A program made the translations under genes and the position numbers. Positions 1,250 through 30,905 of a stretch of DNA of 64,000 nt are shown here, piece by piece. The stretch is from an uncultured delta proteobacterium (GTDB lineage Bacteria > Desulfobacterota > Desulfobacteria > Desulfobacterales > JAHEIW01). The number at the start of each line of letters is the position of its first letter. The first letter of the stretch is position 1. The notes under the pieces were generated by a model, which was given only the letters and a program-made list of their open reading frames with translations, did no database searches and was not told the origin of the DNA. Location of the stretch: the NCBI GenBank assembly GCA_963706575.1, contig CAVPNL010000001.1, positions 288,001-352,000 of the forward strand, read 5' to 3'.

Positions 1250-2299
1250 TTACCCAGCTGAAGAGAAACTAATCTTTTTCATGTCATCCAATCGTCCCAG
1301 CACACTGCCTTCCAGCGCAAAGAGCGTGCGCTCGCAGGGACAGGTGCGGTCGGCCACGGTTACAATGTCGCGTGTCCGATAACGTATGAAGGGCGTCGCG
1401 CGTCTATCCAGATTGGTCAATACCAGTTCACCCGTACCGCCGGGTCCCAAGGGCTCATCGGTTTCAAGATCCAGAACCTCCGGGTAAGCCCAGTCTTCAT
1501 TGACATGCGTCACGCCGGATTGAAATTCACAATTATAGCCCCAGGGGCCGATTTCAGTGGAGCCCAGAAAATCGAATGCCTTGCAACCATAGGCACTTTC
1601 GATCTTATTTTTAACCCCGGGAATCACAGCGCCGGGTTCGCCCGTGTGCCAGGAGAGCCTGATACGAGCTTTCATGGCAAGATCGATGTCGCTTTTTGCG
1701 GCAACATCCGCCATATGAATGGCATAGGACGGGGTGGCGCCAATGACCGTGATCGGATAAGTGGCCAGGGCGTTGATGCGTTGTTCGGTCTTCATGCCCC
1801 CGGATGCAAAAAGCAGGCAGCCGATTTCCTGGCAGGCGTACCATCCGGCCCAAAACCCGATCCAGGGGCCGAAGCTGAACACGGGCATGACCATGTCGGT
1901 CTTGCGGATCCCGTAAGCATAGAGCATGCGGGCGTAAATATGACAAAATTGGGACCAATCCTCAGGTGTGTCGAGAATTTTAATAGGGGTGCCGGTGGTA
2001 CCGGATGTCATGTGCACCCGCTGGGTTTCCTCCATTGGAACTGCCAGCATGCTGCCCCAGGGCGCATGGGCCTCCTGGTCTTTGCGTAAGTCTTCTTTGG
2101 TTAGAAAAGGCAGTCTTTTTATGTCATCCAGTGTGCGGATCTGATCCGGCGTGATATTGGCCTTCTGGAAATGTTTTTTATAAAATAGGCTATGATCCCA
2201 GGCGTGTTGAACCAGGGCTTTGAGTTTGCGCTCCTGCAAACCCCTGAGTTCATCCCGTGATGCCGTCTCAATTTCAGGATCATAATAGCGGCTTGCCAT
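1250..2299 (-). pseudogene. Phenylacetate-CoA ligase (PaaK) family protein, C-terminally truncated
   Basis: HMTSGTTG, GSTEIG, IRYRTRD and GRLDDM motifs present; the ORF ends 9 residues after GRLDDM at 349 aa, against 435 aa for the paralog at 35963-37270; I saw no continuation in other frames. Confidence 0.75.
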
Positions 2300-2317
2300 A
2301 GGTCCTCCTTCGCAAAA

Positions 2318-3136
2318 TTATAATTTTAACAACCTGGCCGCATTTTCACCCAGAATCATTCGTTTGGCTTCTTCTTTTATACTTAAGCCCTGCAGGGCGG
2401 TTATATTTTCTTTGATGGTGGGCACAGCCGGCCAGTCGGAGCCGTAGATCACTTTATGGGCGATGCGCTCGAGTTCCGGAAAATAATTTAATAGATTTTG
2501 CGGTGGCAGCCCGGAAACTTCCATGTACACATTTTCATGAATCCGGGCCAGCGTCAGCGCTTTTTGATACCAGAATGGGCGCCCGCTGTGAGCCTGAAGC
2601 AGTTTGAGTTTCGGAAAATCCACTGCAACATCATCCAGGTAAAGGGGATCTCCGTATTTTAGCCGGGCGCCGCTGAATATAGACGAGCCGATATGAAGCA
2701 ATACCGGGATGTCCAGCTCCTGTGCCTTGGCGTACAGCGGATAGATTTTGGTCTCGTTGGGATAGAAATGCTGATAGGTCGGATAAAGTTTTAAGCCCCT
2801 GAAACCCTGGTGTCGCACCAATTCCTCCAATTCATCATCCGGTCTCTCAGATGTGTTCGGGTCAATGCTGGCAAAGGGTATCAGGCGTGGACTATGAGAG
2901 CAGAATTTCGCCACATCCTCATTGGCAGCGATTCCGGAAGTGATGGGAGCAAGTTCTGCCAGGATCACCGCATAATCAATACCGGCCTCATCCATTAGTC
3001 CCACAAAGGCTTGCGGTGAAGAATAGGTCTCAAGCATCCAGTCCAGGCGCTCTCCCCATCCCTGCTGCAAAAGTTCCGTATAATCCGGTGTCCGGCTGCG
3101 ATAATACGCGGTATGGACATGAAAATCGATAATCAT
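2318..3136 (-). CDS. Amidohydrolase_2 family metal-dependent hydrolase
   Basis: IIDFHVH, GLKLYP, VLLHIG, AHSGRP and YGSDWP motifs. Confidence 0.88.
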   Translation of the reverse strand: MIIDFHVHTAYYRSRTPDYTELLQQGWGERLDWMLETYSSPQAFVGLMDEAGIDYAVILAELAPITSGIAANEDVAKFCSHSPRLIPFASIDPNTSERPDDELEELVRHQGFRGLKLYPTYQHFYPNETKIYPLYAKAQELDIPVLLHIGSSIFSGARLKYGDPLYLDDVAVDFPKLKLLQAHSGRPFWYQKALTLARIHENVYMEVSGLPPQNLLNYFPELERIAHKVIYGSDWPAVPTIKENITALQGLSIKEEAKRMILGENAARLLKL

Positions 3137-3540: not shown

Positions 3541-5694
3541 TTACGACGGCAGCAATGGATCCGGCTGCTGCCGCTCGTGATCGATGGCATAGCGCCTTGC
3601 GGCGGTGAGTGCTTTTACGGCGATTCCGGTGGTATCAAAAAAGGGCATATTCAACCCATCGACTTCTTTGAGCCACCGCTGCTTTACTACGCCGCCAATC
3701 AACACGGAATAGAGTGGCTTTTCAGGATGAAGCTCCTTGGCCTTCTGGTAGACATCCCGGATACCTTCGAAATCCGCGTTCGCCAGACCCAACAGGATCA
3801 CCAGAACGGCATCCACATTCTCGTCATCCAATACCGAATGGATGCCCTCTTCGTGGGCGAGGCGGTTGCCAGCCCCCAGGGCCGCCCAGAGGTCAAGCGG
3901 ATTTGCGGGCGGTTGCCACTCCGGTAGAAACTTTTTGATACGTTCCCGGGTCCTGGGGCTGAATTCAGCCTGCACAAAACCGTTGGCCTCCAGCTCGTCC
4001 GAGGCCATCACGCCATTGGCGCCGCTGAAGGTTACGATACCGACCCGGTTTCCCTGGGGCAGCGGCTGGTACTGAAAAACCTTCATATACTCCAGAAATT
4101 CCTCCAGGTCGTATGCCCGGGTAATTCCATACTGCCGGTAGGCGTAATCGACGATCTTATCGTCGAGGGCCAGGGAACCGGTATGCGAGGCTGAGGCTTT
4201 GGCGCCTGCTTTCGTGCGGCTGGGCTTTAGCACCACAATCGGCATGTCTGCTTTGGCCTTATTCGCAATCGAGAAAAAGCGACGGGGGTTTTGCATGCCT
4301 TCCAGATAAAGCGCCACCTGATCGCTTCCCGGGTCTTTCCAGGCCCACTCCAGGTAATCACTTTCGTCCAGATCGATTTTGTTGCCGAATATAATACTTT
4401 TGCCGATCCCGATGCGCTGAACGGTTCGTGTCATCAGCTGATCGGCCACCGCGCCGGCAAAGATTCCGGATTGGCCGCCCAATGCAATGGAGCCATCCTC
4501 CCAGTTTTCAAACAGAATGAAGCTGGCCACCAGTTTCTGGTCCATGTTGATGAATCCGATTGAGTTGGGTCCCATGCAGCGGACGCCGGTTTTTCTGATC
4601 AGCTCGGCCAGCTTTTCCTGCTCTTTTTTGCCTTCCTCTCCGACCTCGGCAAAGCCTGCCGCTATGATTACCGCTGCTTTTACACCCTTTTTGTAGCAAT
4701 CCTCAAACAGGGTCGGCACAAACTTGCCCGGCAGAAGAAAGAAGACCAGGTCGATATCACCCGGCACATCGAGGATTTTAGGATAGGCCTTGAGACCGAT
4801 GATCTCGTCGGCTTTGGGGTTGATGGGGTATACTTTTCCCGGAAAACCGTTGACCACAATATTTTTCAGCAATACGTGGCCGGTTTTGGTTGGATTGGTT
4901 GAAGCACCGATGACAGCCACGGACTTGGGTTCCAGGACGGCCCTGATGTCATTGAGGACATCACTTTTAGCGGGTTGTTCTATGGCGTCTTCTTTTTGTT
5001 TGAGGGTAATCAGGGCGTCCAGTGCCAGAATCCGATCACCTTTAACCACAAGGGGATTGATGTCCAATTCTTCGATGTCGGCATGAAATTTGACCGCCAG
5101 CTCCGAAAGCCGGGCAATGGTCTGTGCAAGCGCCGTTCTGTCGGCGCGCGCTTGCCCGCGGTAACCGTCGAGCATCTTTGACCCTTTAATCTCATCCAGC
5201 ATCTCGGCAGCACCACTTTCATCAATCGGTGCCAGGCGTAATGTGACATCTTTCAACAACTCTACGAACACGCCCCCGAGACCAAATGCCACCACCGGGC
5301 CGAAAGGGGGACGGTTGGCGACGCCCAAAATCGTCTCAATACCGCCTTCCACCATTTCCTGAACAAGAACACCGTCGATTTTGGCAGCGGGATGCTTTTC
5401 ATTTATGGCATTCATAATTTCCTGGTATGCCTTGCGAACAGCTTCATCGTCAGCGAGTCCCACCTTTACGCCACCGGCATCAGTCTTGTGTAAAATGTCG
5501 GGTGATGAAATCTTTAATACGACCGGGTACCCGATATTTTGGGCGCTGGATACCGCTGCTTCCTCACTGTTGGCCAATTCTTCACGTGTGCCGGCAATTC
5601 CCGCAGCTGCCAGCACCTGCTTGGCTTCAAATTCAGTCAGTTTGGTTCTCCCATCCCTTCGGACGTCTTCCAGGATCTGTTCAATTTCCGCCAT
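3541..5694 (-). CDS. ADP-forming acyl-CoA synthetase (acetate--CoA ligase family), beta-alpha fusion
   Basis: N-terminal ATP-grasp (ILHKTDAGGV, ELDINPL) followed by a CoA-binding domain (VAVIGAS, GPNSIG) and the phospho-His motif ASHTGSLA. Confidence 0.88.
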   Translation of the reverse strand: MAEIEQILEDVRRDGRTKLTEFEAKQVLAAAGIAGTREELANSEEAAVSSAQNIGYPVVLKISSPDILHKTDAGGVKVGLADDEAVRKAYQEIMNAINEKHPAAKIDGVLVQEMVEGGIETILGVANRPPFGPVVAFGLGGVFVELLKDVTLRLAPIDESGAAEMLDEIKGSKMLDGYRGQARADRTALAQTIARLSELAVKFHADIEELDINPLVVKGDRILALDALITLKQKEDAIEQPAKSDVLNDIRAVLEPKSVAVIGASTNPTKTGHVLLKNIVVNGFPGKVYPINPKADEIIGLKAYPKILDVPGDIDLVFFLLPGKFVPTLFEDCYKKGVKAAVIIAAGFAEVGEEGKKEQEKLAELIRKTGVRCMGPNSIGFINMDQKLVASFILFENWEDGSIALGGQSGIFAGAVADQLMTRTVQRIGIGKSIIFGNKIDLDESDYLEWAWKDPGSDQVALYLEGMQNPRRFFSIANKAKADMPIVVLKPSRTKAGAKASASHTGSLALDDKIVDYAYRQYGITRAYDLEEFLEYMKVFQYQPLPQGNRVGIVTFSGANGVMASDELEANGFVQAEFSPRTRERIKKFLPEWQPPANPLDLWAALGAGNRLAHEEGIHSVLDDENVDAVLVILLGLANADFEGIRDVYQKAKELHPEKPLYSVLIGGVVKQRWLKEVDGLNMPFFDTTGIAVKALTAARRYAIDHERQQPDPLLPS

Positions 5695-6365: not shown

Positions 6366-7544
6366 TTATCTGGCCATGAATGCTCCGCCTTCAACAACCA
6401 GGGTTCTGACACCGCCGACGCCGTCACCGTTTTTGTCCATGGTGGTCACACCGGAGATGCCGTTGAAATCTTTCAGCTTTTCCCAACCCTGGCGGATTTT
6501 ATCGCGATCCTTGGCCAGGTCTCCGGGTTTGTTGGTAACCCCTTCTTCCTCCATGATTTTCTTGATAATATAAATGTTGTCATAGGAACGCGGTCCGCCG
6601 TAAGGTGGCGCTTTGCCGCCCGGAGAACGCGCTTTGAATTTCTCAAGATATTTGACCATTCTGGGGTCGGGGTTGCCACCGATCCAGGCGGCCGTTGAAC
6701 CAAAATAGCCTTCGACAGCCTCCCCGCCGATTTCGATCAGACCGGGAGTACTGTTGCAGGCGCCGCCCAGCATGGGTGCATTAAGGCCCTGCTTTTTAGC
6801 TTCGATCGCAATTTTGGCGCCGGCTTCGTAGCAGGAGCCAACCGCAATGCCATCCGGGTTCAGCGATTTGACCTCGGTTATAAATGGTGCGAAATCAACG
6901 GTTTGAGTCTGGAACGTAAACATTTTCTTGAGCTCTATGCCGTGTTTTTTGAATAAAACCGGCATGATTTTTTTGCCTTCCACCGTGGAAACGGCATCTT
7001 CCGAGTTGTAAAGGATAACGGCGGATTTGATACCATATTTTTCTTTCCATTTGGTGATGGCCGGATCGAGCTGCTTATCGCTGGTCAGGGTATTTCTGAA
7101 TGCCCAGGGGCTCAGGGCGGACAGACCCGGTTTGGAGGAGCAAAAAGAAATCATCGGCATCTTTAATCGATTCAGCTTTGGAAAAATGACTTCACAGACT
7201 GAGCTCTGGCAGGGCCCGTTGACCACCAGGGCCTTATCCTGTTTGGCGAGTTTTTCGACCACCGGGATGGCAGGTGGTGCTTTGCAGCCAACGTCGTACC
7301 ACACCATCTCGATTGGAACACCGCCGATTCCGCCGGCGGCATTGATTTCTTCTACCGCAATTTCAGCAGAAATTTTTGCAGCGTTGCCCCACTCAGCGCA
7401 GACCCCTGAAACTGAATAGATGCCGCCAATTTTGACCGTATCGCCGGAAAGCTTTCCGGCTTGAGCGGATGGCGCAAAGGTCAGGACGCTTACCACAAAA
7501 AACGCAATAATTACAATTGGCAAAAAATTTTTCTGTTTTACCAT
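6366..7544 (-). CDS. LIV/HAAT-family ABC transporter substrate-binding protein
   Basis: Signal peptide ending AQA; VKIGGIYSVSG and AVEEINAAGGIGG motifs; adjacent permeases and ATPases. Confidence 0.9.
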   Translation of the reverse strand: MVKQKNFLPIVIIAFFVVSVLTFAPSAQAGKLSGDTVKIGGIYSVSGVCAEWGNAAKISAEIAVEEINAAGGIGGVPIEMVWYDVGCKAPPAIPVVEKLAKQDKALVVNGPCQSSVCEVIFPKLNRLKMPMISFCSSKPGLSALSPWAFRNTLTSDKQLDPAITKWKEKYGIKSAVILYNSEDAVSTVEGKKIMPVLFKKHGIELKKMFTFQTQTVDFAPFITEVKSLNPDGIAVGSCYEAGAKIAIEAKKQGLNAPMLGGACNSTPGLIEIGGEAVEGYFGSTAAWIGGNPDPRMVKYLEKFKARSPGGKAPPYGGPRSYDNIYIIKKIMEEEGVTNKPGDLAKDRDKIRQGWEKLKDFNGISGVTTMDKNGDGVGGVRTLVVEGGAFMAR

Positions 7545-7689
7545 GATGCCCTCCTTTCGAATAGAAGTGAACCTACAAAGGACCCGTTCGGGTTCGTCCT
7601 CATTTTTTTTATCACCTCCCTTATCTCAACAGACGATATTCTTTAAACCGACGGTTCTTATAAACGAATTGATTTTATTTTACATCCAT

Positions 7690-8421
7690 TCATTGAACCC
7701 GCGCGCTGCGGCCGGCTCTTCCCAGGTAGGCTCTTTGAACCGCCTCATTATCCCGCAGCGTCTGACTGTTGCCCTCCAGGACAATGCGGCCGGTTTCCAT
7801 TACATAGCCGCGATCCGCGACAGTCAGGGCCTGATTGGCATTTTGCTCCACCAGCAAGATCGTGTAACCGTCGTTGGCACGCAGTTCATGGATGGTTTCG
7901 ATGATAAATTCCACTAAAACCGGCGCCAGCCCCAGAGAGGGCTCATCCATGAGCAGCAGCTGCGGTTTTGCCATCAAGGCCCGGCCGATCGCGAGCATCT
8001 GTTGTTCGCCTCCTGAAAGCGTGCCTGCATTCTGGCCCAGTCGTTCTTTCAATATCGGGAATTTTTCGAAGACCTGGTCAAGATCCTTGGCGATACCCAT
8101 TTTGTCGGAACGCAGGTAGGCGCCCATTTCCAGATTTTCTTTCACGGTCATGCGGGATAATATCCCCCGTCCTTCGGGAATTTGAACCACCCCCATCTTG
8201 ACGATTGCATAGGGTTTAACGCCGTCGATCCTGCGGTCCTGGTAGACAATTCGACCCTCTTTGGGCTTTAGGGCGCCGGATATGGTTCTCAAAAGCGTGC
8301 TTTTCCCGGCACCATTGGCGCCAATCAGAACCACGACTTCGCCGCGCTGGACGTCAATTCTTACCGCATTGATCGCGAGAATACCGCCGTATCCGGCTGA
8401 GATGTTTTCGACAGACAGCAT
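7690..8421 (-). CDS. livF: LivF-type ABC ATPase
   Basis: GANGAGKS, LSGGEQQMLA, MDEPSLGLAP. Confidence 0.9.
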   Translation of the reverse strand: MLSVENISAGYGGILAINAVRIDVQRGEVVVLIGANGAGKSTLLRTISGALKPKEGRIVYQDRRIDGVKPYAIVKMGVVQIPEGRGILSRMTVKENLEMGAYLRSDKMGIAKDLDQVFEKFPILKERLGQNAGTLSGGEQQMLAIGRALMAKPQLLLMDEPSLGLAPVLVEFIIETIHELRANDGYTILLVEQNANQALTVADRGYVMETGRIVLEGNSQTLRDNEAVQRAYLGRAGRSARVQ

Positions 8422-8426
8422 CGCAT

Positions 8427-9188
8427 CTACCTTTTTCTGCCTAAATAGGCTTCAATGACCGCAGGATTTTCCTGAATCTCGGACGGGTTGCCTTCGGCGA
8501 TTTTAGCGCCGAAATTGAGCACTGAAATCACATTGGATATTTCCATGACCAAATCCATATTATGCTCGATTAAAAGAACCGTCTTACCCATCTGGTTGAT
8601 TTTGACGATCAGGGATTCCAGATCCACGGTTTCTTTTGGATTCATTCCGGCTGCGGGTTCGTCGAAGAGCAGCAAATCCGGATCCTGGCTGAGTGCCCTG
8701 GCGATTTCAACAAGACGCTGCTCGGCATGGGGGAGGTTGGCGGCAATCTGGTCGGCTTTTTGAGGGATGCCGACAAACTCCAACCAGTGCATGGCATTTT
8801 CACGGGTGGTCTTTTCTTCCTTCAACTCCCGCAGAGAAATTCGGAAGAGGGTTCTTAACAACCCGGTTTTGGTCCGGCAATAACTGCCAAGCATCACATT
8901 TTCCAAAACGCTCATATGACCGAAAAGCCTTACGATCTGAAAGGTCCTGGCAATTCCCAGTTCGGCTCTCTGATGGGGCTTTAATCCGTTAATCAGGCTT
9001 TTTCGAAAGGAGATTTGTCCTTCGGTAACATCGTACATTCCGCTGATCAGGTTAAAAAGGGTGGTCTTGCCGGCGCCATTGGGTCCGATAATGGCATGTA
9101 GCGTATTTTCTTCTACTTCAAGTTCTACATTCATAAGTGCGCAAAACCCGTCGAAATATTTAGCGATATCTTTTATTTCAAGAATCAT
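8427..9188 (-). CDS. livG: LivG-type ABC ATPase
   Basis: GPNGAGKT, IARTFQ, DEPAAGMN, VIEAYLG. Confidence 0.9.
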   Translation of the reverse strand: MILEIKDIAKYFDGFCALMNVELEVEENTLHAIIGPNGAGKTTLFNLISGMYDVTEGQISFRKSLINGLKPHQRAELGIARTFQIVRLFGHMSVLENVMLGSYCRTKTGLLRTLFRISLRELKEEKTTRENAMHWLEFVGIPQKADQIAANLPHAEQRLVEIARALSQDPDLLLFDEPAAGMNPKETVDLESLIVKINQMGKTVLLIEHNMDLVMEISNVISVLNFGAKIAEGNPSEIQENPAVIEAYLGRKR

Positions 9189-10075
9189 TTGCCCTCCGTT
9201 CGGTCCGGATAGAGAACGCCAGCGCTCTCTATCCCCAAAAGTTTGCGAAAGGCATATTCAATAGATCGTACGGAATCCAGACTGATAATCCCCTGGGGTC
9301 TGACAATCATCATTAAAATAAGCAGCGCGCCGTATAACTCCATGCGCCATTCCTGGATGACGCGCAGAAATTCCGGAACCAAAGTTAAAACAAAAGCACC
9401 GAATATGGGACCCCAGAATATCTGGATTCCACCGAAAATGGTAAATACGATCAACTCAACGGCGTGCATGACGTCGAACATGAGTGGTTCGATGTACTCC
9501 TGGTAGTGGGCAAAGATCCCCCCGCCGACACCGGCAATAAAAGCACCCGATGAAAATGCGGTCAGCTTGACGGCGGTGATGTTTACCCCCAGAACTTCAG
9601 CCGCATCCTCATCACTGCCGACCGCCTGACAGGCCCGGCCCATTCGAGACTTGCGCAATCGATTAAAGAATACGATCAGGATCACGATCATGCCATAAGC
9701 ATACAACAGGGTGTGTTCCTGATAGGGGATTCCCGGAAAACCGGCAGCGGCACCGATATAGTCGATATTGATGAAGACCACACGCACAATCTCACCAAAT
9801 CCCAGGGTCAACAGCAGCAGATAAATCCCTTTGATACGCAGGGCCGGAAGCCCTAAAACGAAACCGACCATTGCGGAACAAATCCCGCCGATCAAAACAG
9901 CCGGCACGTAAGGGATTCCGAATTTAACCGTGCAGACCGCCGACGCGTAAGCACCAATAGACATAAACCCGGCCTGACCCAGGGATATCTGTCCGGTCAT
10001 AAAGGGCAGATAGAAGCTAAGGGCCATAATGATATTAATGCCTGCAATCGTGATAACGGAAATCAGATAATCCAA
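9185..10075 (-). CDS. livM: LivM-type ABC permease
   Basis: GQISLGQAGF and TLGFGEIVR motifs; hydrophobic; TTG start. Confidence 0.88.
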   Translation of the reverse strand: MDYLISVITIAGINIIMALSFYLPFMTGQISLGQAGFMSIGAYASAVCTVKFGIPYVPAVLIGGICSAMVGFVLGLPALRIKGIYLLLLTLGFGEIVRVVFINIDYIGAAAGFPGIPYQEHTLLYAYGMIVILIVFFNRLRKSRMGRACQAVGSDEDAAEVLGVNITAVKLTAFSSGAFIAGVGGGIFAHYQEYIEPLMFDVMHAVELIVFTIFGGIQIFWGPIFGAFVLTLVPEFLRVIQEWRMELYGALLILMMIVRPQGIISLDSVRSIEYAFRKLLGIESAGVLYPDRTEGK

Positions 10076-10089
10076 TTCAAAATCCCTTC

Positions 10090-10965
10090 TTAACCCTGTC
10101 GAATGCGTGTCCCGAAAAGCCCGGTGGGTTTGAATATCAGAATCAGGATCATGATACCGAAAGAAAAAATATCCTGTAAATTAATCTCGGTCGGCAGGAT
10201 AACGATACTGAGCACTTCAGCCAATCCCAGAATCAGTCCGCCAATCATGGCGCCGGCCACATTGCCGAGTCCTCCCAAAAGCATAACGACCAGCCCTTTA
10301 AGGGCAAAAGTCAGTCCGATAAAAGGAGAAATGGCGTGGAAGGACAACCCGATCATCACCCCGGCAGCCCCGGCTAGGGCGGATGCGATACCAAAGGTAA
10401 TCAGGACGATCCAATCCACATTTACGCCCAGCAGACCCGCGACCATGTGATTTTCAGAGACCGCGCGCATGCCTTTTCCAATCTTTGCCTTGGCGATAAA
10501 AAAATACAGGCCGACCATTAAAGACAGAGAAATCCCCAGTATAAGGACGTTAACGGAACTGATGAAAAATGATCCAACCTGATAATTCGTGGTTCCGATG
10601 GCATCGGGAAAACGGGTCCCGTATCCGCCGAAAAGCTTTACGGCCAGGTTCTGCAGAATAATGGTAACCCCGATGGTGCTTAAAAGCGGTGCCAGGTGAA
10701 AATCCTTTCTAAGCGGCCGGATCGCCAGCAAATCGATCAAAACACCCAGGATTCCCGTGGCTAGCATGGCCAGGGGCAGGGTGATGTAGAGCGGCAGGCC
10801 GCTCCAGATGATGATATAGAGCCCCATAAAGGCACCGGCCATTAAGACTTCGCCGTGCGCAAAATGCAGAATTCCGAGCACGCCGAATATGAGGGTATAA
10901 CCGATCGCCACCAGCGAATATGTGGCGCCCAGCGTCAGACCGTTGATAATTTGTTGAAAGATCAT
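10090..10965 (-). CDS. livH: LivH-type ABC permease
   Basis: NGLTLGATYSLVAIG, HFAHGE, GKGMRAV; ATGA overlap with the upstream 2Fe-2S gene. Confidence 0.9.
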   Translation of the reverse strand: MIFQQIINGLTLGATYSLVAIGYTLIFGVLGILHFAHGEVLMAGAFMGLYIIIWSGLPLYITLPLAMLATGILGVLIDLLAIRPLRKDFHLAPLLSTIGVTIILQNLAVKLFGGYGTRFPDAIGTTNYQVGSFFISSVNVLILGISLSLMVGLYFFIAKAKIGKGMRAVSENHMVAGLLGVNVDWIVLITFGIASALAGAAGVMIGLSFHAISPFIGLTFALKGLVVMLLGGLGNVAGAMIGGLILGLAEVLSIVILPTEINLQDIFSFGIMILILIFKPTGLFGTRIRQG

Positions 10966-11442
10966 TTATTCCTCATTTGCTGAGCGGCTTCCATCACCGA
11001 ATCGACCACCTGCTTGTATCCGGTGCAGCGGCACAGCACGCCGGACATGTTCTTTCGCACCTCTTCCTCGCTCGGATTCGGATTTTCATTGAGAAATTCA
11101 TAGGCGGTCATCAGCATGCCGGGGGTGCAGTATCCGCACTGCAGGCCGTGTTTTTCGCGAAATGCTTCCTGAATGCGGGTGTAATTGCGCGGCATCTGCA
11201 AGCCCCTCGACGGTCGTGATGTCGGCACCATCGGCCTGGACGGCAAACATCAGGCAGGAACGCACCGCGCGGCCGTTGAACAGAACCGTACAGGAGCCAC
11301 ATATGCCGTGTTCGCATCCGATGTGGGTTCCCACCAGTTCCAGATCGTTTCTTAAAAAATCAACCAGAAGGCGCCGGGGCTCTACCCAACGCTCATAGTC
11401 CACGCCATTTACATTTACTGCGATGCGACGACTGTCTGCCAT
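10962..11442 (-). CDS. Molybdenum hydroxylase small [2Fe-2S] subunit (CoxS-like); one +1 frameshift near 11175
   Basis: GCEHGICGSC in ORF 11098-11457 and LQCGYC...CRCTGY in ORF 10962-11246; removing one base restores LHPIQEAF. Confidence 0.88.
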
Positions 11443-11443
11443 T

Positions 11444-18370: not shown

Positions 18371-18672
18371 ATTCGGTCCTTTTATTGACAATTTAATAAA
18401 GAAAACAATTAGTTATACGGTTATTGGCCTGAATGAGTGTGTGATATATCGAATATTGCATACCGACATGGCGGGGCGATGTCAATAAGAAATTGTAAAA
18501 TATATTCGCGCATAATTGAATCGTAAAACGTGCCGCCAGGCACCTTAAGCCAGGTTTTGGAGAAGCCATCAAAATATTTGACTTGAAATATTGTATGTAG
18601 TATGCAACATGCAACATAACCTGAAATCAAATCACCTGCGGGTGGCTTCACCCGATCCAGCCGGTAAGTGCA

Positions 18673-20652: not shown

Positions 20653-21852
20653 ATGACAACACTTAAAAGACACCAAAAAGTCAAATTCGTACTGGTAATA
20701 GCCGCTGTGGCTATCATCAGTCTGGCCATTTCCCTGCCGGCAGTCCATGCCGGGCAGCCCATTAAAATAGGCGTTGCCTACGGTCTGCAAGGTGTGTGGA
20801 GTGACTGGTGCAAGAAAAACATCGTGGCGGTTGAAATGGCGGTCGAAGAAATCAATGCCGCCGGCGGGGTGAACGGAATGCCGCTGGAGACCATTATATA
20901 CGATACGGCCAGCAAACCGGCCGAAGCCACCCGCCTGGTGCGTAAACTGGCCACCGATGACAAGGTTTTAGCCATTTTAGGACCCTTTTCCAGCTCCGAG
21001 TGCGAGGTGGCCTTTCCGGTAGGTAACCGCATCGGGATTGTCATGATCTCCCAGGCGTCTTCCAAACCGGGGGTTGCCGCCAAGTGGCCTTACGCCTTTC
21101 GCAATAAAATCGATGAGCTCAGACTGGCCTTTCCGGCCATCAAAAAATGGATGATGATTCATAAAATTAAAACCGTGGCCATCGTTCATGATGCCAAGGA
21201 CGCCGTCGGTCGTGCATTGGGTACCATGGTTTTGCCGGGAGTCAGCAAAAAGCTGGGACTTCAGATCGTCAACGAAGGTAACTATGTGACCTATACCACC
21301 GGTGATTTCGACATGCGGCCGCAGGTGACAAAGCTTAAAAGTATGCAATTTGACGGCCTGGTGTTTGGCGGTCTTTACATGGACGGCGTCACGTTTATCA
21401 AAGAAGCCCGGCGCCAGGGTCTTAATCAGCCCATGGTCGGGGGCAATCCGCTGATGAGTTTGCAATTTCCCCGCAAGGGCGGCAAGGCAGCGCAAGGTGT
21501 TTTTACATCTTCGGAATTTTATTACTGGATGGAAGAACCCAAGGTGCAGAAGTTTACCAAAGAGTTTATCAATAGGGCCAAGGCCAAAGGCATCGATCCT
21601 CCCGAGCCGTTGCAGTTTGACGTCAATGTCTACGATGCCATTTACATGCTGGCGCATGTCATCAAACAAAACGGCATTACCAACAAACCCGCAGACCTGG
21701 CGCGGGATCGTGAACTGATCATGAAGGGCCTGACCGATCTAAAAGACTTTCCGGGACTGGCCAGCAAGATCAGATTTAACGATAAGGGCGATGCTGTCAG
21801 AGACGTTTATGTCGTCAAGGCCCAGGGCGATGAATGGGTCCTGGTTGAATAG
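20653..21852 (+). CDS. LIV/HAAT-family ABC substrate-binding protein
   Basis: Signal peptide; AVEEINAAGGVNG; similar to the SBP at 6366-7544. Confidence 0.9.
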   Translation: MTTLKRHQKVKFVLVIAAVAIISLAISLPAVHAGQPIKIGVAYGLQGVWSDWCKKNIVAVEMAVEEINAAGGVNGMPLETIIYDTASKPAEATRLVRKLATDDKVLAILGPFSSSECEVAFPVGNRIGIVMISQASSKPGVAAKWPYAFRNKIDELRLAFPAIKKWMMIHKIKTVAIVHDAKDAVGRALGTMVLPGVSKKLGLQIVNEGNYVTYTTGDFDMRPQVTKLKSMQFDGLVFGGLYMDGVTFIKEARRQGLNQPMVGGNPLMSLQFPRKGGKAAQGVFTSSEFYYWMEEPKVQKFTKEFINRAKAKGIDPPEPLQFDVNVYDAIYMLAHVIKQNGITNKPADLARDRELIMKGLTDLKDFPGLASKIRFNDKGDAVRDVYVVKAQGDEWVLVE

Positions 21853-21924: not shown

Positions 21925-23310
21925 ATGTTTTATGTCCTTTTTGCTTTAATTTGTATTTATGCCATCTTTACGCTCTGGTTTTCGATAAGCGCTTTTTGGG
22001 AGAAAGAACGCCAAGCCGGGATCAGAGGTCTGATTTGCACGTTTGCGATGGTGGTTTTTTTATTTTTCTACGCCCAGGCTCAGGCCGGCGGTATGTTAGA
22101 TGGAACATTTGTGAAAATCCTCCAGGGCATTATTGCTGCGCTGATGATCCTGTTTACGATTTCGATGTTTGTTCCCATCGGTCGCCGACCCGAAGCCCTG
22201 AAAGGAACCGAGGGGATGCGCCAAGGCGAGACAGAACGGTTCAACCAGAAGGATACGGCCTTCAATATTGCCCATGTGGGCGCATACGGTCCTGAAGTGA
22301 GCAAACAGCGCTGGGCTCTTCAGAGCCGGGATCCTTTCGGGGGCATCTACTGGACGCTTGTAATGGGATTGCGGCCGCAGGCGGACGGCAAGGTCAACCC
22401 GCAAAGACAGGATGGTTTTTCTAGCGAAGAGATCACAAAGGAAATCAAACGAACCGCCCGTTATTGCGGGGCGGATCTGGTGGGCATTACCAAAGTCAAA
22501 CAGGATTTTTGTTACAGTGAAACGTTTTCATATGAGGAATCCAAACTGGGTACCGGACCCGCGGTGACATCACCGGTAGATATAAAACATAAATATGTCA
22601 TCGTTTTAGGCCGCGAAATGAATTTTCATCGAATACAGAACACCCTCTCTTCGAAGAATGATGAAAGTCTGGGTGAAATCGGAAAGACCTACTATGAACT
22701 GGCCCAGATTGCCTGTGCGTTGGCGGCATTCATCCGACAGCTGGGTTATTCCGCCAAAGCCCATCATGTGCGCAATGAACAGGTTTTGCAGGTACCGTAT
22801 GCGGTTGATGCCGGCCTCGGTGAACAGGGGCGCCATAACTATATCATTAGCGAAAAATACGGTCCACGGGTACGACTGGCAACGGTGACAACCGACCTCG
22901 AATTGATCGAAGACAAACCGGTCGATATCGGCGTACAGGATTTTTGCGAAAGCTGCCGATTATGCGAAATCAACTGCCCGGCCCAGGCCTTGGCCGCTGA
23001 AAAGACCGAGGTCAGAGGATACCGTAAGTGGCCCCAAGACTATACCAAATGCTTTGGATTCTGGGTTACAGGCGGCAATACGTTTGGCTGTACACTGTGT
23101 TTGAAAGTCTGCCCCTGGAACAAGCCCCGTACGTTTGTTCATCGCGTCAGTATGTATGGCGCCGCGCGTTCGATTGTGGCCCGCCGGGTCCTTTACTGGA
23201 TCTCGCTGATCTTTTACGGCAAACTCTATCGCTGGAAACGACTGCCGTTGCCGGATGAGATCGAGATGCCCCCGGAGACCCAGAGCTGGGGCAAGCAATC
23301 ATCAAATTAG
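21925..23310 (+). CDS. Reductive dehalogenase-like cobalamin/2x[4Fe-4S] protein with about 3 N-terminal transmembrane helices
   Basis: GADLVGI, AVDAGLGEQGR, GPRVRLATVTTDL, FCESCRLCEINCP, CFGFW...CTLCLKVCPW; three hydrophobic segments in the first ~85 aa; no Tat motif. Confidence 0.85.
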   Translation: MFYVLFALICIYAIFTLWFSISAFWEKERQAGIRGLICTFAMVVFLFFYAQAQAGGMLDGTFVKILQGIIAALMILFTISMFVPIGRRPEALKGTEGMRQGETERFNQKDTAFNIAHVGAYGPEVSKQRWALQSRDPFGGIYWTLVMGLRPQADGKVNPQRQDGFSSEEITKEIKRTARYCGADLVGITKVKQDFCYSETFSYEESKLGTGPAVTSPVDIKHKYVIVLGREMNFHRIQNTLSSKNDESLGEIGKTYYELAQIACALAAFIRQLGYSAKAHHVRNEQVLQVPYAVDAGLGEQGRHNYIISEKYGPRVRLATVTTDLELIEDKPVDIGVQDFCESCRLCEINCPAQALAAEKTEVRGYRKWPQDYTKCFGFWVTGGNTFGCTLCLKVCPWNKPRTFVHRVSMYGAARSIVARRVLYWISLIFYGKLYRWKRLPLPDEIEMPPETQSWGKQSSN

Positions 23311-26731: not shown

Positions 26732-27055
26732 ATGAGCTATGCATATTTGGTCATATATGAGGTGCAGCCTGAAGATCCTGAAGCTTTTCTGCGATACTAT
26801 TTTGAAACTCACATTCCGATTGTCTGGACATTTCCGAAGATTCGGCGAATTCAAATAGAGCGCGGAGTGGATGGCGGTGACTTTTTTATGATCGCGCGTT
26901 TTACCTTTGATACTCTGGAAGATCTACGGATGGCCATTACATCCAAGGAACGAGAACGTGCGCGGGCTGATATGCAAAATTTTCCTGCTTACCATGGACG
27001 GGTAAGCCGTCAGGCAGTTGAGATAGTGGAAGTAGGACCTGATGGGATCCAGTAA
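26732..27055 (+). CDS. EthD family dimeric alpha/beta-barrel protein
   Basis: PEDPEAFLRYYFETHIP...FP motif; 107 aa. Confidence 0.78.
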   Translation: MSYAYLVIYEVQPEDPEAFLRYYFETHIPIVWTFPKIRRIQIERGVDGGDFFMIARFTFDTLEDLRMAITSKERERARADMQNFPAYHGRVSRQAVEIVEVGPDGIQ

Positions 27056-28136
27056 ATCCGATCATAAGGTAAAATTGTTTTCACCATTAAAGTTGCGTGA
27101 GGTCATCATACCCAATAGGATCATGATTTCACCGATGTGCCAGTATTGTGCCAAAGACGGGATTCCGCATGAATGGCACTTCGTGCACCTTGCCACCAGA
27201 GCGGTTGGCGGTGCTGGGATTGTGATGACCGAAGCGGTTGCGGTTGAGCCGGCAGGCCGCATCACGCCTTTTGATGTCGGATTGTGGAATCAAGAACAGC
27301 AGGAAGAATTTTCGCGACTGGCTGCCTTTATCGATAGGCAGGGAGCCATACCCGGGCTGCAACTTGCCCATGCCGGACGGAAAGCATCCCACGCCCGTCC
27401 CTGGGAGGATCGTCGCCCGCTTACGCCAGCCGAGGGGGGGTGGGAGGTTTACGGGCCCAGCCCAATGGCCTGGGATAGCGGTGATCCCATTCCGCTGGAG
27501 TTGACAACCGATGATATAGCTCATCTAACAAAGACATTTCAGCATGCTGCCCTACGCGCTTTTAAAGCCGGATTTCGTCTGCTGGAATTGCACGCGGCCC
27601 ACGGATACCTGCTGCATTCTTTTCTTTCGCCCCTGACAAACCATCGCCGGGACGCGTATGGTGGAAATTTTGAAGGCCGAATACAATTTGTTGTCGAGGT
27701 GGCCAGAGCAATTAGGGAGGTCTGGCCCGCAGGACTGCCGTTTTTCGTTCGAATATCAGCCACCGATTGGGTAAACGATGGCTGGGATTTGGATGATTCC
27801 GTACGATTGGCCAAATTGCTTATTTCTGAAGGCGTAGATGCGATCGATTGTTCAAGCGGAGGAATTTTGCCGGGGATCGATATAAAACCGCATGCCGGCT
27901 ATCAGGTGCCGTTGGCAGAAGAAATTCGGCTTCGGACAGGCGTTCGAACCGTGGCAGTTGGCATGATCAGTGAGCCGAGACAGGCTGAGGACATTATCGC
28001 TAACGATCGGGCGGATTTGATCGCTATCGGTCGACTTGCCTTATGGGATCCTTACTGGCCGCATCATGCCGCAAAAAAATTAAACGCCAAGGTCCAACTG
28101 CCGCGACAGTACGAACGGGCCAATATCTTTAATTAA
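27042..28136 (+). CDS. NADH:flavin oxidoreductase / old yellow enzyme (YqjM-type)
   Basis: SPMCQY, QLAHAGRKA, HAAHGYL, RISATDW. Confidence 0.92.
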   Translation: MGSSKSDHKVKLFSPLKLREVIIPNRIMISPMCQYCAKDGIPHEWHFVHLATRAVGGAGIVMTEAVAVEPAGRITPFDVGLWNQEQQEEFSRLAAFIDRQGAIPGLQLAHAGRKASHARPWEDRRPLTPAEGGWEVYGPSPMAWDSGDPIPLELTTDDIAHLTKTFQHAALRAFKAGFRLLELHAAHGYLLHSFLSPLTNHRRDAYGGNFEGRIQFVVEVARAIREVWPAGLPFFVRISATDWVNDGWDLDDSVRLAKLLISEGVDAIDCSSGGILPGIDIKPHAGYQVPLAEEIRLRTGVRTVAVGMISEPRQAEDIIANDRADLIAIGRLALWDPYWPHHAAKKLNAKVQLPRQYERANIFN

Positions 28137-28200: not shown

Positions 28201-29481
28201 ATGTCAATAGCTGTTAGTATACACGGCAAGACGGGCAGACGCTTCGGAATAGCGGAATTGTCGGAAGCGGCCTACGTCAAGGATATTGTACATCCGCTTG
28301 AGCGCTATGATGAAAGGATGACGCCGCTTTCCAGAGGTTACGTACCGCCCGGCGGGTGGCAACAGGAGTTTCTCGACACACTGGTGCCTGCCATCGGCCA
28401 GCAGGGGGCAGTTCCCCGTGACGAGCCGGGATACACCCAGATAGATCTTGCATTGCGAATTGCCGGGTTTCATACTGCCATGGCGACCAACTGCCACACG
28501 GGCAATTGGACGCGGCCGCGGCTCTCTGATGAGCTGGGCTGTTTTTATGATTGGGAAGGAATCTGGAGCCCCGCAATGATCGGGCTGCCTTGGGAACCTC
28601 CGAAATTAGCGGTGGCATCGCCGGCAGAAATGTCTGAAATCGTTAAAGACGCAGCTTTGTTCCTGGGCGCCAGTCTGGTAGGGATCACCGAGCTGAATCG
28701 AAACTGGATTTATAAAAAGGGATGGGAGCGTTACGGTCATAAAGAAATCGATCTGAATGCCAAAATACCGTCCAGCATAAAATATGCAGTCGTCATGGCC
28801 ATTGAAACAAATTATGATTATGTGCGGCATGCGCCGACAGCCAGGGCCAGTGCGGCGGCCGGTTTAGGCTATTCGAAGATGGCAATTCTCAGTCCGGCGT
28901 TAGCCAAGTTTATTGCTTCACTGGGCTATACTGCCATTGCATGCGGCAACGATACGGCCTTGAGTATCCCGCTGGCTGTAGATGCTGGTCTGGGGCAGCT
29001 GGCCCGGTTGGGAACGTTGATTACGCCGGAATTCGGGCCCCGGGTAAGGTTGTGCAAAGTGCTCACCGATCTTCCTTTGAAACCAACAGCTCCGGTTGAT
29101 TTTGGTGTGACCGAATTTTGTCAGATATGCGAAAAATGCGCCGAGTACTGTCCCTCTCAGGCGATCTTATACGGCAAAAGAATTTCCACGGCACGCACCG
29201 TCTCTACCAACCCCGGACTTTTGAAGTGGCCGCTTAACGGCGAAAAATGTTTTCGGTACTGGTATAAAAATGGTGCTAAAACCGAGAAGGGAATGTACCA
29301 TATCGATTGTTATCAATGCATTAATGTATGTCCGTTTAACAAACAGCCGGGAATCGGCCATGATACGGTTCGCTGGTTTATAAGAAAAAAGATTCCATGG
29401 GTAAGCCGGTTGCTGAAGTGGGGCGATGATCTTTTTTATAAAGTACTGTACAAAACCGGCAAGTATGCGTCTAACACCTGA
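28201..29481 (+). CDS. Cytoplasmic reductive dehalogenase-like cobalamin/2x[4Fe-4S] protein
   Basis: GASLVGI, GYSKMA, SIPLAVDAGLGQLARLG, GPRVRLCKVLTDLP, FCQICEKCAEYCP, CFRYW...CYQCINVCPF; no signal peptide and no rdhB. Confidence 0.88.
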   Translation: MSIAVSIHGKTGRRFGIAELSEAAYVKDIVHPLERYDERMTPLSRGYVPPGGWQQEFLDTLVPAIGQQGAVPRDEPGYTQIDLALRIAGFHTAMATNCHTGNWTRPRLSDELGCFYDWEGIWSPAMIGLPWEPPKLAVASPAEMSEIVKDAALFLGASLVGITELNRNWIYKKGWERYGHKEIDLNAKIPSSIKYAVVMAIETNYDYVRHAPTARASAAAGLGYSKMAILSPALAKFIASLGYTAIACGNDTALSIPLAVDAGLGQLARLGTLITPEFGPRVRLCKVLTDLPLKPTAPVDFGVTEFCQICEKCAEYCPSQAILYGKRISTARTVSTNPGLLKWPLNGEKCFRYWYKNGAKTEKGMYHIDCYQCINVCPFNKQPGIGHDTVRWFIRKKIPWVSRLLKWGDDLFYKVLYKTGKYASNT

Positions 29482-29498
29482 AGCAAGGGGAGGATATC

Positions 29499-30905
29499 AT
29501 GGGCAAAACCAGCAATCGAAAGATGGATCTGCACGGTTTTCTTGAAGAACATCAAGGTCAGTATATTCAAATAAATAAACCGGTAAAACTTGAGCATATC
29601 GGGGCGCTGGTGGCTCAGGCAGATGATACCATTGTCTTTGATAACATAGTAGATTACCCGGGATTTCGCATTGTGGATCAGCTTTTTGTCAATCGCAAGG
29701 CCCAGGCCGCGGTGCTTGGCTGTCAACCGGATGGGGTTGTCAATCGGTTGGTTGAGGTGATGCGCACGGGGCCCAGGACACTCAGAGAAGTAGAAAGTGG
29801 ATCCTGCCAGGATCGTGTTTTTAAAGGTGATGAACTTGATCTGAATGCCTTGCCGGTTCCGGTACACACGCCATTGGATCCCTATCCCTATACAGCCGGA
29901 TTTGCGGTGCACCGACACCTGGATACCGGTAAATTAAACCAGATGTTCCCGCGCTGTGGCGTGCTGAGTCGCAATGAAATGGTGGCGTCATTTGTCACGC
30001 CCACGGCTAATCAAATCCTGGCCAAGTATCGCGAGCAGGAAAAACCCATGCCCCAGGCGCTGGTCATCGGGGCGCACCCGGCCTGGGAACTGGCCTGCTG
30101 TTATTCATATCCCCATGAAGATTTTTGTGAATTGGAGCTGTTTGAAGCCATTAGCGGACAGGTCGGCGAAGTCACCCGCTGTAAAACAGTGGATCTTGTG
30201 GTGCCGGCCGATGCCTCGATTATTATTGAGGGGCTTGTCAGCCCAACCCGCATGGCGCAGGACGGGCCAAATCCCGGACCCAATGCGCTTTTTTGTCCCT
30301 ATGATCAACAACAGCCGGTTTTTGAAGTTACGGCCATAACCATGCGAAAAGATCCGATTTTTCGACACGTGCAGACGACACCTTTTACCGATCACCAGGA
30401 GATGCCGCGGCTCTTCCATGAGGCCATTATTTTCGAGCGCATTAAATCCATGGGATTAAACGTTCATGATGTTCATTTTCCCCAGGGAGGTGCGGCTCAG
30501 GTGGTGATCATTCAAGTCGAGCCAGCCGTGGACGGGCAGGTGACCGATGCACTGATGGCTGCCTTAGGAGCGCCCTGGGCCAACATGAAAATGGCAATCG
30601 CAGTTGATCCGGACATCAATATTTATGACTATCGAGACATTATGTATGCGCTTTCCACACGCGTTGATCCGAGCAAACACACAACGATCATAAACAACGG
30701 TCGGATCTGGCCTTTTGACCCCAGTGCCACACCCGTTGATGGCGCATTTCCGCATACCCAAAAAACGCGGTTGCCTTCCGTGGTCGGAAAGTGGGCCATA
30801 GACGCCACCAAACCGGTTCCGTATCGTGAGGAGGAACGGAAAAATTATGAACGCGCGTGGCCGATCGGCTGGGAAGAGATCAATTTAGAGGATTATTTGG
30901 ATTAA
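29499..30905 (+). CDS. UbiD family (prFMN-dependent) decarboxylase-like protein with an atypical active-site motif
   Basis: VIGAHP, VPADASIIIEG, FEVTAITMR, VDPDINI and WAIDATKP motifs; DGPNPG in place of EGPFGE/D. Confidence 0.85.
   Translation: MGKTSNRKMDLHGFLEEHQGQYIQINKPVKLEHIGALVAQADDTIVFDNIVDYPGFRIVDQLFVNRKAQAAVLGCQPDGVVNRLVEVMRTGPRTLREVESGSCQDRVFKGDELDLNALPVPVHTPLDPYPYTAGFAVHRHLDTGKLNQMFPRCGVLSRNEMVASFVTPTANQILAKYREQEKPMPQALVIGAHPAWELACCYSYPHEDFCELELFEAISGQVGEVTRCKTVDLVVPADASIIIEGLVSPTRMAQDGPNPGPNALFCPYDQQQPVFEVTAITMRKDPIFRHVQTTPFTDHQEMPRLFHEAIIFERIKSMGLNVHDVHFPQGGAAQVVIIQVEPAVDGQVTDALMAALGAPWANMKMAIAVDPDINIYDYRDIMYALSTRVDPSKHTTIINNGRIWPFDPSATPVDGAFPHTQKTRLPSVVGKWAIDATKPVPYREEERKNYERAWPIGWEEINLEDYLD

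Follow-up and report, generated by a model that had tools for sequence, protein, structure and literature searches.

We analysed a stretch of 64,000 nucleotides (hereafter the window) from the genome of an uncultured delta proteobacterium of the Desulfobacterales (contig CAVPNL010000001.1, positions 288,001 to 352,000) and found that its positions 1250–30905 carry two divergent gene arms, which very probably form one system acting on heteroaryl-coenzyme A (CoA) esters. The locus is a conserved and apparently undescribed variant of the CoA/molybdenum (Mo) pathway for heteroaromatic acids, equipped with a dehalogenase front end. If this holds, pyrrole-2-carboxylate is a rather probable choice of substrate. 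The full proposal, namely that a sulfate reducer converts pyrrole-2-carboxylate and its halogenated forms anaerobically to 2-oxoglutarate, with halogen removal as an optional front end, has in our estimate about an even chance of being correct.

Linkage of the Two Gene Arms

The relation between the arms is clearest in two genomes from other families of the Desulfobacterota, G573 (family f113, 100% complete) and G719 (f126, 99% complete). On one strand of G573, genes for a GntR regulator, amidase, cupin, CoA ligase, DUF2848, the Mo hydroxylase, an importer and a CoA transferase are followed by synthetases, an amidohydrolase, a membrane RdhA (61% identity), an intact PaaK (75%), a second RdhA and the importer of the right arm. 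In G719 this run is repeated from the ligase through the importer, and the cupin gene is nearby on the opposite strand; in the two genomes the membrane RdhA orthologues are 61–63% and the PaaK orthologues 75–78% identical to those of the window. G765 retains the tail of this run, from amidohydrolase to importer, in identical order, and in G803 the synthetase, amidohydrolase and RdhA genes mark its start up to the contig end. The co-occurrence of the arms, predicted in a preliminary description made from the window alone, is thus seen as a single same-strand run in both G573 and G719, and we consider it highly probable that they constitute one system.

Broader sampling gave a similar picture. 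Among 400 genomes of the phylum, the RdhA orthologue was found in three, all of them among the four whose Mo subunit is 81% identical or more (two Mo and four RdhA candidates were scored per genome, so that misses are possible). Within the genus, one genome of 21 (G006) has the RdhA orthologue, together with the same head of the divergent operons. The Mo subunit is present in all five other genomes found with the membrane RdhA orthologue. Assembled contigs of four RNA runs span the Mo arm, both GntR genes and the Nit and cupin genes of relatives, which as contigs are no proof of transcription; one of them joins 20569 to 25209, as in a deletion scar described below. The halogen block was left uncovered by these contigs, to which no weight is given.

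All genes of the preliminary description were recovered at their position and strand from open reading frames (ORFs), Pfam and NCBIfam. The left (-) arm encodes a CoA ligase, DUF2848, the Mo hydroxylase (L-CoxG-M-S), a LIV importer, an ADP-forming acyl-CoA synthetase, an Amidohydro_2 protein and a PaaK-like ligase; the right (+) arm encodes Nit, cupin, a LIV binding protein, RdhA, further LIV components, EthD, an old yellow enzyme (OYE), a second RdhA and UbiD. The features are as follows (window coordinates, strand, assignment, basis).

1250..2299, -, PaaK-like CoA ligase, 3'-truncated (343 of 442 residues); intact orthologue between two rdhA genes in G573, G719 and G765
2318..3136, -, Amidohydro_2 metallohydrolase, candidate ring-opening (lactam) hydrolase; Pfam
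3541..5694, -, ADP-forming acyl-CoA synthetase, candidate CoA-releasing, ATP-recovering step replacing HmfE; Pfam, NCBIfam
6366..10965, -, LIV-type ABC importer of the Mo module (binding protein 6366-7544); Pfam, recurs at related loci
10962..11457, -, Mo hydroxylase small 2Fe-2S subunit, +1 frameshift near 11175; Pfam
11444..12325, -, Mo hydroxylase flavin adenine dinucleotide (FAD) subunit; Pfam, 47% to the Geobacillus hmf-cluster M subunit
12344..12784, -, CoxG/SRPBCC subunit; Pfam, counterpart fused to L in proteobacterial HmfA
12807..15230, -, Mo hydroxylase large subunit, HmfA sister clade; identity, tree, homologue names
15342..16034, -, DUF2848 protein, FAH fold; Pfam, structure model (pLDDT, the predicted local distance difference test, 91), fold matches FAHD1, Cg1458, YisK and KdaD
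16037..17683, -, AMP-forming CoA ligase, no HmfD orthologue; NCBIfam, sequence comparison
17696..18391, -, GntR/FCD regulator, head of the Mo arm; Pfam, recurs at related loci
18445..18618, no strand, TTGCATAC / GTATGCAA-type sites forming an inverted pair within the divergent promoter region, candidate operators; retained in same-genus relatives
18673..19344, +, GntR/FCD regulator, head of the right arm; Pfam
19392..20162, +, Nit-family amidase with E-K-C triad motifs, candidate 2-oxoglutaramate amidase; Pfam, motifs
20197..20562, +, small cupin common to aerobic monooxygenase clusters; Pfam, homologue neighbourhoods
20653..21852, +, binding protein of the importer travelling with the membrane RdhA; neighbourhoods of relatives
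21925..23310, +, reductive dehalogenase with three N-terminal transmembrane helices and no Tat (twin-arginine translocation) motif; TIGR02486
23377..26596, +, LIV permease and ATPase genes of the halogen block, with frameshifts in livH and livM that relatives lack
26732..27055, +, EthD-family protein, variable; Pfam, NCBIfam
27042..28136, +, old-yellow-enzyme flavin oxidoreductase, variable, absent in L034 and L036; Pfam
28201..29481, +, short cytoplasmic reductive dehalogenase, no Tat motif, no transmembrane helix; TIGR02486
29499..30905, +, UbiD-family protein of a clade without the catalytic glutamate (DGP[NS]PGP); Pfam, alignment, model

The candidate operators are genus-limited, as no such sites were found upstream of the more distant loci examined. 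The host assembly amounts to 5.67 Mb and has dsrA above the cut-off in a profile search; a genome-wide search returned six rdhA-like, three ubiD and two DUF2848 genes.

The Molybdenum Hydroxylase Core and a Proposed Amidase-Ending Route

The Mo large subunit is 53.6% identical to its counterpart in the Geobacillus hmf cluster, and 43.8% and 44.2% to those of the Cupriavidus and Dinoroseobacter hmf clusters, which serve as proteobacterial proxies for HmfA of C. basilensis (the HmfA threshold of 45% is taken from PMC8091172). A quick IQ-TREE search placed it in a 19-row HmfA-like group with 100% support, separate from eight paralogues of its own genome, and there the window clade (94%) is sister to, and outside of, the five hmf-cluster subunits (98%), with which it shares a signature insert. 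The expectation that the subunit clusters with HmfA against other Mo hydroxylases was borne out in this tree. Homologues bear the name 2-furoyl-CoA dehydrogenase in databases; the substrate-side motifs are unlike those of HmfA.

We found 12 Mo loci by scanning species genomes and 15 distinct loci in all (Mo subunit of about 80% identity or more, later-found loci included); those with 93–97% identical Mo subunits are labelled Desulfobacterales. DUF2848 lies alongside the Mo subunit at 14/15 loci and the CoA ligase at 13/15, with contig ends accounting for the misses. Five of the 15 carry a KorA-like gene, and KorAB elsewhere in the host genome is 77% and 73% identical to the cluster-linked copy of L014. 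Orthologues of the Amidohydro_2 gene (65–90%) adjoin the Mo module, and 43–44% identical homologues adjoin HmfA-like genes in L027 and L100. A CoA-transferase pair occupies the position of the ADP-forming synthetase in G573 and G719.

The CoA ligase shares 27–30% identity with HmfD, compared to 46–61% among HmfD-like proteins. HmfE, a crotonase-type thioester hydrolase, is missing from the window cluster, and its best full-length matches in the host genome reach about 32%. Along the 15 Mo loci all matches to HmfD and HmfE stay under 40%; one 44% HmfE match is situated at the far end of the G573 region. Since the Mo subunit is sister to HmfA while the ligase is just 27–30% identical to HmfD, the Mo/CoA core would seem, from sequence comparison, to work like the Trudgill route without being an hmfABCDE cluster. 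In the HmfABC-type route envisaged at the outset the Mo enzyme keeps its place. More distant HmfA-like subunits (43–60%) occur in other Desulfobacterota (L097-L102; G448, G438, G695) next to several UbiDs and hydantoinase-like and phytoene-dehydrogenase-like genes; they may represent further unexplored heteroaromatic pathways.

The clue to the substrate comes from the amidase, cupin and DUF2848 genes. The amidase has the Glu-Lys-Cys triad motifs and its nearest solved relatives are Nit proteins, although it scores under every NCBIfam cut-off. L055 encodes a Nit-cupin fusion protein, and in G573 the Nit slot is filled by an amidase-signature amidase, so that two unrelated amidase families share one slot. 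DUF2848 contains invariant ExE, Asp, Lys and His-x-x-Glu positions, which we take to match the metal site of FAH proteins; it has no sequence match in the PDB, and the Atlas returned family names only. While the amidase and cupin genes are co-located with the right arm, as the preliminary description had it, they belong with the Mo module.

The same genes recur in clusters of aerobes, together with flavin reductase, HpaB-type monooxygenase and LIV importer genes (identity to the window genes: cupin 53–65%, DUF2848 36–42%); Caballeronia sp. NK8, Thioclava and Paracoccus versutus are cultured carriers of a monooxygenase-cupin-amidase-DUF2848 cluster. Among the 40 of 63 DUF2848 plasmid matches listed, at least 22 of the 31 records with a cupin have DUF2848 no more than about 3 kb away from it, and aminotransferase-DUF2848-cupin units found elsewhere fit 2-oxoglutaramate. 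No homologue of the aerobic monooxygenase was matched in the host genome at E 1e-40. Because the cupin, DUF2848 and amidase are common to the aerobic monooxygenase clusters, an O2-dependent hydroxylase and the CoA ligase plus Mo hydroxylase pair appear to be alternatives ahead of one lower, amidase-ending pathway, which points to a shared lower route through 2-oxoglutaramate. A ring-cleaving dioxygenase function of the cupin is unlikely because the protein is conserved in anaerobes and the host bears dsrA.

The product of pyrrole-2-carboxylate monooxygenase is C5-hydroxylated, and C5 hydroxylation would yield the dehydrated form of the 2-oxoglutaramate lactam. In Table 1 of PMC6165268 this monooxygenase is listed with HpaB among the group D flavin monooxygenases. 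2-Oxoglutaramate itself is 99.7% lactam at equilibrium and opens slowly at neutral pH (PMC10452834), and anaerobic sponge enrichments are reported to debrominate ethyl 4-bromopyrrole-2-carboxylate (PMC12203066). We favor pyrrole-2-carboxylate, as HmfA kinship suggests a five-membered ring, the amidase suggests nitrogen and a group D monooxygenase provides the counterpart. The unhalogenated acid gains support from the aerobic counterpart clusters, and brominated pyrrole-2-carboxylates, initially offered as an example, are kept as candidate substrates.

Two further arrangements of these genes were noted. L039:17881-21289 holds a second cupin-DUF2848-Nit unit followed by a gene for a DAO-family flavoprotein, which might produce pyrrole-2-carboxylate from hydroxyproline. 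In Caballeronia sp. NK8 (L054:11235-33193) an hmf-type cluster adjoins a monooxygenase-cupin-amidase-DUF2848 cluster, with similar spacing in Cupriavidus sp. P-10.

The Halogen Block and the UbiD-Family Protein

Both RdhA proteins exceed the cut-off of TIGR02486 (168.6 and 209.7 bits vs 160.35) and fall far under that of the QueG family TIGR00276 (59.3 and 46.5 vs 200), which rules out an identity as epoxyqueuosine reductase and upholds their description as RdhA-like proteins distinct from QueG. They retain two Fe-S motifs, and their Tyr and Arg residues that align with those of PceA are presumably catalytic. Neither has a twin-arginine (RRxFLK) motif and no rdhB-like gene occurs among the window ORFs. 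With 461 (membrane-anchored) and 426 (soluble) residues, they are below the approximately 700 residues of the NpRdhA/BhbA type; catabolic NpRdhA is the best solved match of the membrane protein. The pair matches the "transmembrane" and "simplified cytosolic" classes described in PMC12219181. As regards the corrinoid need of the predicted activity, cobT is present in the host, though split.

Relatives show that the block is dispensable. In G014 the cupin gene is directly followed by the orthologue of the gene at 30902, with no halogen block in between. A chance insertion of the block, considered from this arrangement, was dropped: in G573, G719 and G803 the Mo operon has rdhA genes in its tail, and the remnants in relatives indicate deletion. 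In L006 and L052 the cupin is joined, across the scar, to roughly 80 bases of livG and the ubiD 3' end, and L049 and L050, L051, and L088 carry three other deletion scars; the scar-bearing relatives retain the Mo arm, amidase and cupin. Given the linkage in G573 and G719 and the four different scars in block-less relatives, the block is, judging by these sequences, old and repeatedly lost. The dehalogenase genes thus remain part of the system, as suggested before, but as an optional and repeatedly deleted block, and for this reason the core pathway probably serves the unhalogenated acid.

The second RdhA, UbiD, EthD and OYE form a variable sub-module, which was not on the stretches read in G573 and G719, although both nonetheless hold a second RdhA. 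The soluble RdhA and UbiD genes are within one gene of each other at 14 of 20 UbiD loci; five of the remaining loci are cut by contig ends and one has a transposase-like neighbor. In L039 and L045 the UbiD-RdhA sub-module directly follows the cupin and DUF2848 genes. The Mo arm was not within the flanks read of the metagenome loci L039-L043.

Other dehalogenase units were also recorded. In the same genome, L010:8200-18001 (contig C1) contains a second rdhA pair (one soluble, one three-helix) with GntR, PaaK-like ligase, trimethylamine-methyltransferase-family and IorA-like genes, and in L009:8057-17595 (C3) tandem soluble rdhA genes are followed by TetR, LIV importer and CoA ligase genes, a third catabolic-looking unit. 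The recurrence of PaaK-like ligases beside RdhAs hints at dehalogenation of CoA esters or haloarylacetates. In G719 and G765 a glutamine-synthetase-family gene lies directly ahead of the membrane RdhA gene (L084:16850-18334, L095:1770-3269); it may handle ring nitrogen in these two genomes, where no amidase orthologue was detected.

What is new here, as far as sequences tell, is a UbiD lacking the catalytic glutamate, a trait common to all 120 homologues listed. The motif reads DGPNPGP, compared to EGPFGE in canonical neighbors. Among the 120 listed of 394 homologues found, Pro at the catalytic Glu column and Asp at the first acid are each invariant (120/120), Arg is present in 119/120, no acid occurs in the next three columns after the catalytic Glu position, and Glu301 is invariant in the clade. 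The protein comprises three UbiD domains, its model folds like HmfF (template modeling score, TM, 0.85), and it is about 26% identical to HmfF and HudA, HmfF being the nearest. It keeps the catalytic Arg and a His at the HmfF H297 / HudA N318 position, and Thr replaces the His that aligns with the metal-site His. One ubiX is located elsewhere on contig C1 and none in the cluster.

The E(D)RE motif with its acid-base Glu is described as integral for UbiD activity (PMC8379154, PMC7976604). As this conserved acid is missing, the role of an ordinary decarboxylase should not be assumed; the variant may use another acid, catalyze another reaction, or none, and HudA illustrates that pyrrole carboxylation is possible within the family. 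The clade was found in one of 60 relatives and one of 400 genomes of the order, with no plasmid match; its distant homologues come from Chloroflexota, Acidimicrobiia and others. Canonical EGPFGE UbiDs are encoded near four other Mo loci.

The copy of the cluster in the window is damaged. Compared with intact relatives, there are +1 single-base frameshifts in the gene of the Mo small subunit (near 11175) and the right-arm livH (near 23842), and a -1 single-base frameshift in the right-arm livM (near 24948). The PaaK-like gene ends at residue 343, compared to 442 residues in the G719 orthologue, and its missing rest was not found in the host assembly. Since the housekeeping gene cobT, elsewhere in the assembly, is likewise in two pieces, the three frameshifts may be assembly errors; real decay of the cluster is also conceivable. 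Three of the four credible frameshift-like places of the window fall in the cluster (with weaker detection outside it).

As for the surroundings, a short Cys-rich ORF with two CxxC-like pairs and no Pfam match lies between the synthetase and amidohydrolase genes (3133-3330, -). Long inverted repeats resembling repetitive extragenic palindromes occupy the intergenic positions 5749-6233 and about 15250-15315; the stretch near 15250 attracts many unrelated contigs and is skipped in relatives. Two TGAxxGAGCGCTCxxTCA palindromes (936-959 and 1117-1140), likely TetR operators, are found upstream of a TetR gene, and the truncated PaaK-like ligase terminates just ahead of them. To the right of the cluster, positions 30902-48730 hold aromatic amino acid / benzoyl-CoA-type genes (2-hydroxyacyl-CoA dehydratase subunit and activator, PaaK, IorAB, dch/had/oah-like genes), conserved there in the genus. 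Finally, a paralogous locus of the same genome (L005, C12:52000-72000) encodes a GntR 64% identical to the right-arm regulator, DUF2848, a related LIV importer, an iron alcohol dehydrogenase, a molybdenum bis-pyranopterin guanine dinucleotide (Mo-bisPGD) enzyme, an aldehyde:ferredoxin oxidoreductase, two phytoene-dehydrogenase-like flavoproteins, a canonical UbiD and CoxG. Parts of it are also found next to the Mo module in L018 and next to the UbiD-RdhA pair in L040, and L005 may be an upstream route (alcohol or aldehyde to acid) feeding the same pathway.

Proposed Pathway, Alternatives and Known Systems

From the gene families, linkage, motifs and folds, which were established directly, we infer every chemical step of the pathway. 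Two LIV importers would bring in the plain and the halogenated acid, the latter being presumably brominated in marine settings. The membrane-anchored RdhA and the second, soluble RdhA would dehalogenate it in the cytoplasm, possibly on a CoA thioester made by the PaaK-like ligase. The CoA ligase would form the heteroaroyl-CoA, which the HmfA-like Mo enzyme would hydroxylate at C5 with water, giving a tautomer of the lactam. The cupin, amidohydrolase and FAH-fold DUF2848 may then together hydrate and open the ring to 2-oxoglutaramate. The ADP-forming synthetase or CoA transferase would recoup the thioester energy, and the amidase would free ammonia and 2-oxoglutarate, to be taken on by 2-oxoacid:ferredoxin oxidoreductase. 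The glutamate-less UbiD could be a variable entry enzyme that carboxylates or decarboxylates the ring through an altered mechanism, or it could be non-catalytic.

A bolder combination is more doubtful as a whole: that marine sulfate reducers mineralize natural bromopyrroles anoxically, that the membrane RdhA of "respiratory" class is catabolic, perhaps on a CoA thioester, that the UbiD performs a new prenylated flavin mononucleotide (prFMN) reaction, be it carboxylation of the debrominated pyrrole or a conversion of the halogenated ring, and that the cupin and DUF2848 open the 2-oxoglutaramate lactam in a step shared with a widespread aerobic pathway.

Several observations weigh against the pyrrole pathway. 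The Nit orthologue was not found in any of the five further Mo-module genomes searched and a clear orthologue of the G573 amidase is found in only one of them, at a completeness of 99% for G719 and 98% for G543, and the cupin lies on another contig in G803, G805 and G543. The nearest characterized relative of the Mo enzyme acts on furoyl-CoA. The aerobic monooxygenases bear generic names alone, and group D also includes phenol, aminobenzoate and chlorophenol enzymes (PMC6165268). The halogen block is lost in several relatives, and the RdhA orthologue was not detected in G002, G014 and G543 despite their Mo subunit. The copy in the window has three frameshifts and a truncated ligase. Moreover, the sampled genomes are few and related, and the co-occurrence counts overstate independence.

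Among the alternatives, an anaerobic Trudgill pathway for 2-furoate or thiophene-2-carboxylate and their halogenated analogues, in which another ligase, an amidohydrolase lactonase and the ADP-forming synthetase replace HmfD and HmfE and the amidase is incidental, seems unlikely. It would fit the report that Desulfovibrio degrades furfural anaerobically (PMC3223595), the sister relationship of the Mo subunit to HmfA, the L-G-M-S order of the Geobacillus hmf cluster, the database name 2-furoyl-CoA dehydrogenase, the proximity of UbiD to HmfF with the His matching H297, and the lack of an amidase orthologue in several genomes. Yet in none of five hmf-type clusters (L025, L026, L028, L029, L054) is a cupin, DUF2848 or Nit gene inside the hmf run (L054 has a separate DUF2848 unit near, but outside it), two unrelated amidases occupy the same slot in the systems studied here, and the substrate-side motifs of the Mo subunit differ from HmfA. 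Comparably unlikely is another N-heterocycle that would be hydroxylated as its CoA ester before ring opening to an amide, such as an azole acid or a halogenated pyridine carboxylate of the picolinate or nicotinate type. Mo hydroxylases of the superfamily do act on quinoline, nicotinate and related rings, the OYE could provide ring reduction, and Amidohydro_2 includes decarboxylases and isomerases of N-heterocycle pathways, with the lumazine pathway as an example (PMC12391406). Still, the conserved core is devoid of a reductase, the OYE is absent from the L034, L036, G573 and G719 stretches, and the Mo subunit is far nearer to HmfA (53.6%) than to any solved six-ring hydroxylase.

It is more improbable still that the RdhAs are respiratory, or serve unrelated organohalides, and merely ride along with a catabolic operon in an island decaying in this genome. 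RdhAs with N-terminal helices are classed as "transmembrane respiratory" in PMC12219181, the genome has six rdhA-like genes, and the repeated deletion of the block, frameshifts and truncation are in line with decay. On the other hand, the RdhA orthologue was found solely in Mo-module genomes (5/5), and within the operon it is flanked by importer genes; the solved protein that it matches best is catabolic, and it has no Tat motif. We retain the pyrrole-2-carboxylate pathway with optional dehalogenation as our working proposal. Compared with the preliminary description, linkage, HmfA kinship and the distinction from QueG were upheld, and the halogen block as core, the placement of the amidase and cupin and the role of the UbiD were revised.

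If true, the system would be an anaerobic sink for pyrrole-2-carboxylate and for sponge- or microbe-derived bromopyrroles. Membrane-anchored RdhAs make up the largest group in a cold-seep survey (1963/3993), where they are called understudied (PMC12219181). By linking one of them to a defined importer, a ligase and an enzyme of ring hydroxylation, the locus singles out compounds for assay. It also suggests a candidate function for DUF2848 and a small cupin family present in bacteria and archaea, and draws attention to a UbiD clade of at least 120 sequences without the acid-base residue held essential.

In the literature searched, from which subscription journals mostly fall outside, no published matching cluster was found, in agreement with the earlier surmise, nor was any literature on DUF2848; the searched part of the PMC12219181 supplement, which excludes its gene-neighbor tables, has no match for furoyl, DUF2848 or UbiD. 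The lumazine cluster of Cupriavidus LA-1 shares a Mo dehydrogenase, amidohydrolase and UbiD but, as described in PMC12391406, is set apart by having no CoA ligase, cupin or RdhA. HmfABC hydroxylate C5 of furoyl-CoA en route to 2-oxoglutarate (PMC3223595, PMC8091172). Like hmfABCDE of Cupriavidus basilensis HMF14 and the hmf-like cluster of Geobacillus kaustophilus pHTA426, the locus combines CoA activation, an HmfA-lineage Mo hydroxylase with CoxG and 2-oxoglutarate as the expected product, and its L-G-M-S gene order is that of the Geobacillus hmf-like cluster. It differs in the added DUF2848, cupin, amidase, amidohydrolase, ADP-forming synthetase and reductive dehalogenases, in the other ligase and lack of HmfE, and in its sulfate-reducing host. 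The Rhodococcus pyrrole-2-carboxylate monooxygenase (EC 1.14.13.130, group D two-component) acts on the same ring with the C5 hydroxylation proposed here, but needs oxygen; the likeness concerns the reaction, and its genes and lower pathway were not found in the literature searched.

The RdhAs resemble NpRdhA and BhbA in their corrinoid and two Fe-S motif architecture, in the lack of Tat export and in the proposed place of dehalogenation ahead of ring degradation. Those enzymes, however, have about 700 residues or more with a vestigial second cobalamin domain and feed aerobic halophenolic acid cleavage, in contrast to the 461- and 426-residue proteins of a putative anaerobic CoA pathway; unlike prototypical respiratory RdhAs, the latter have neither a Tat signal nor an adjacent rdhB. 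The UbiD shares its fold, catalytic Arg and the His at the H297/N318 position with HmfF (acting on furan-2,5-dicarboxylate) and HudA (reversibly, on pyrrole-2-carboxylate), but has Pro for the catalytic Glu, Thr for the metal-site His and no ubiX in the cluster. Finally, the glutamine transaminase / omega-amidase (GTwA) pathway likewise relies on a Nit-family amidase converting 2-oxoglutaramate to 2-oxoglutarate and ammonia, whereas here the amide would arise from ring opening, and the cupin and DUF2848 may handle its lactam form.

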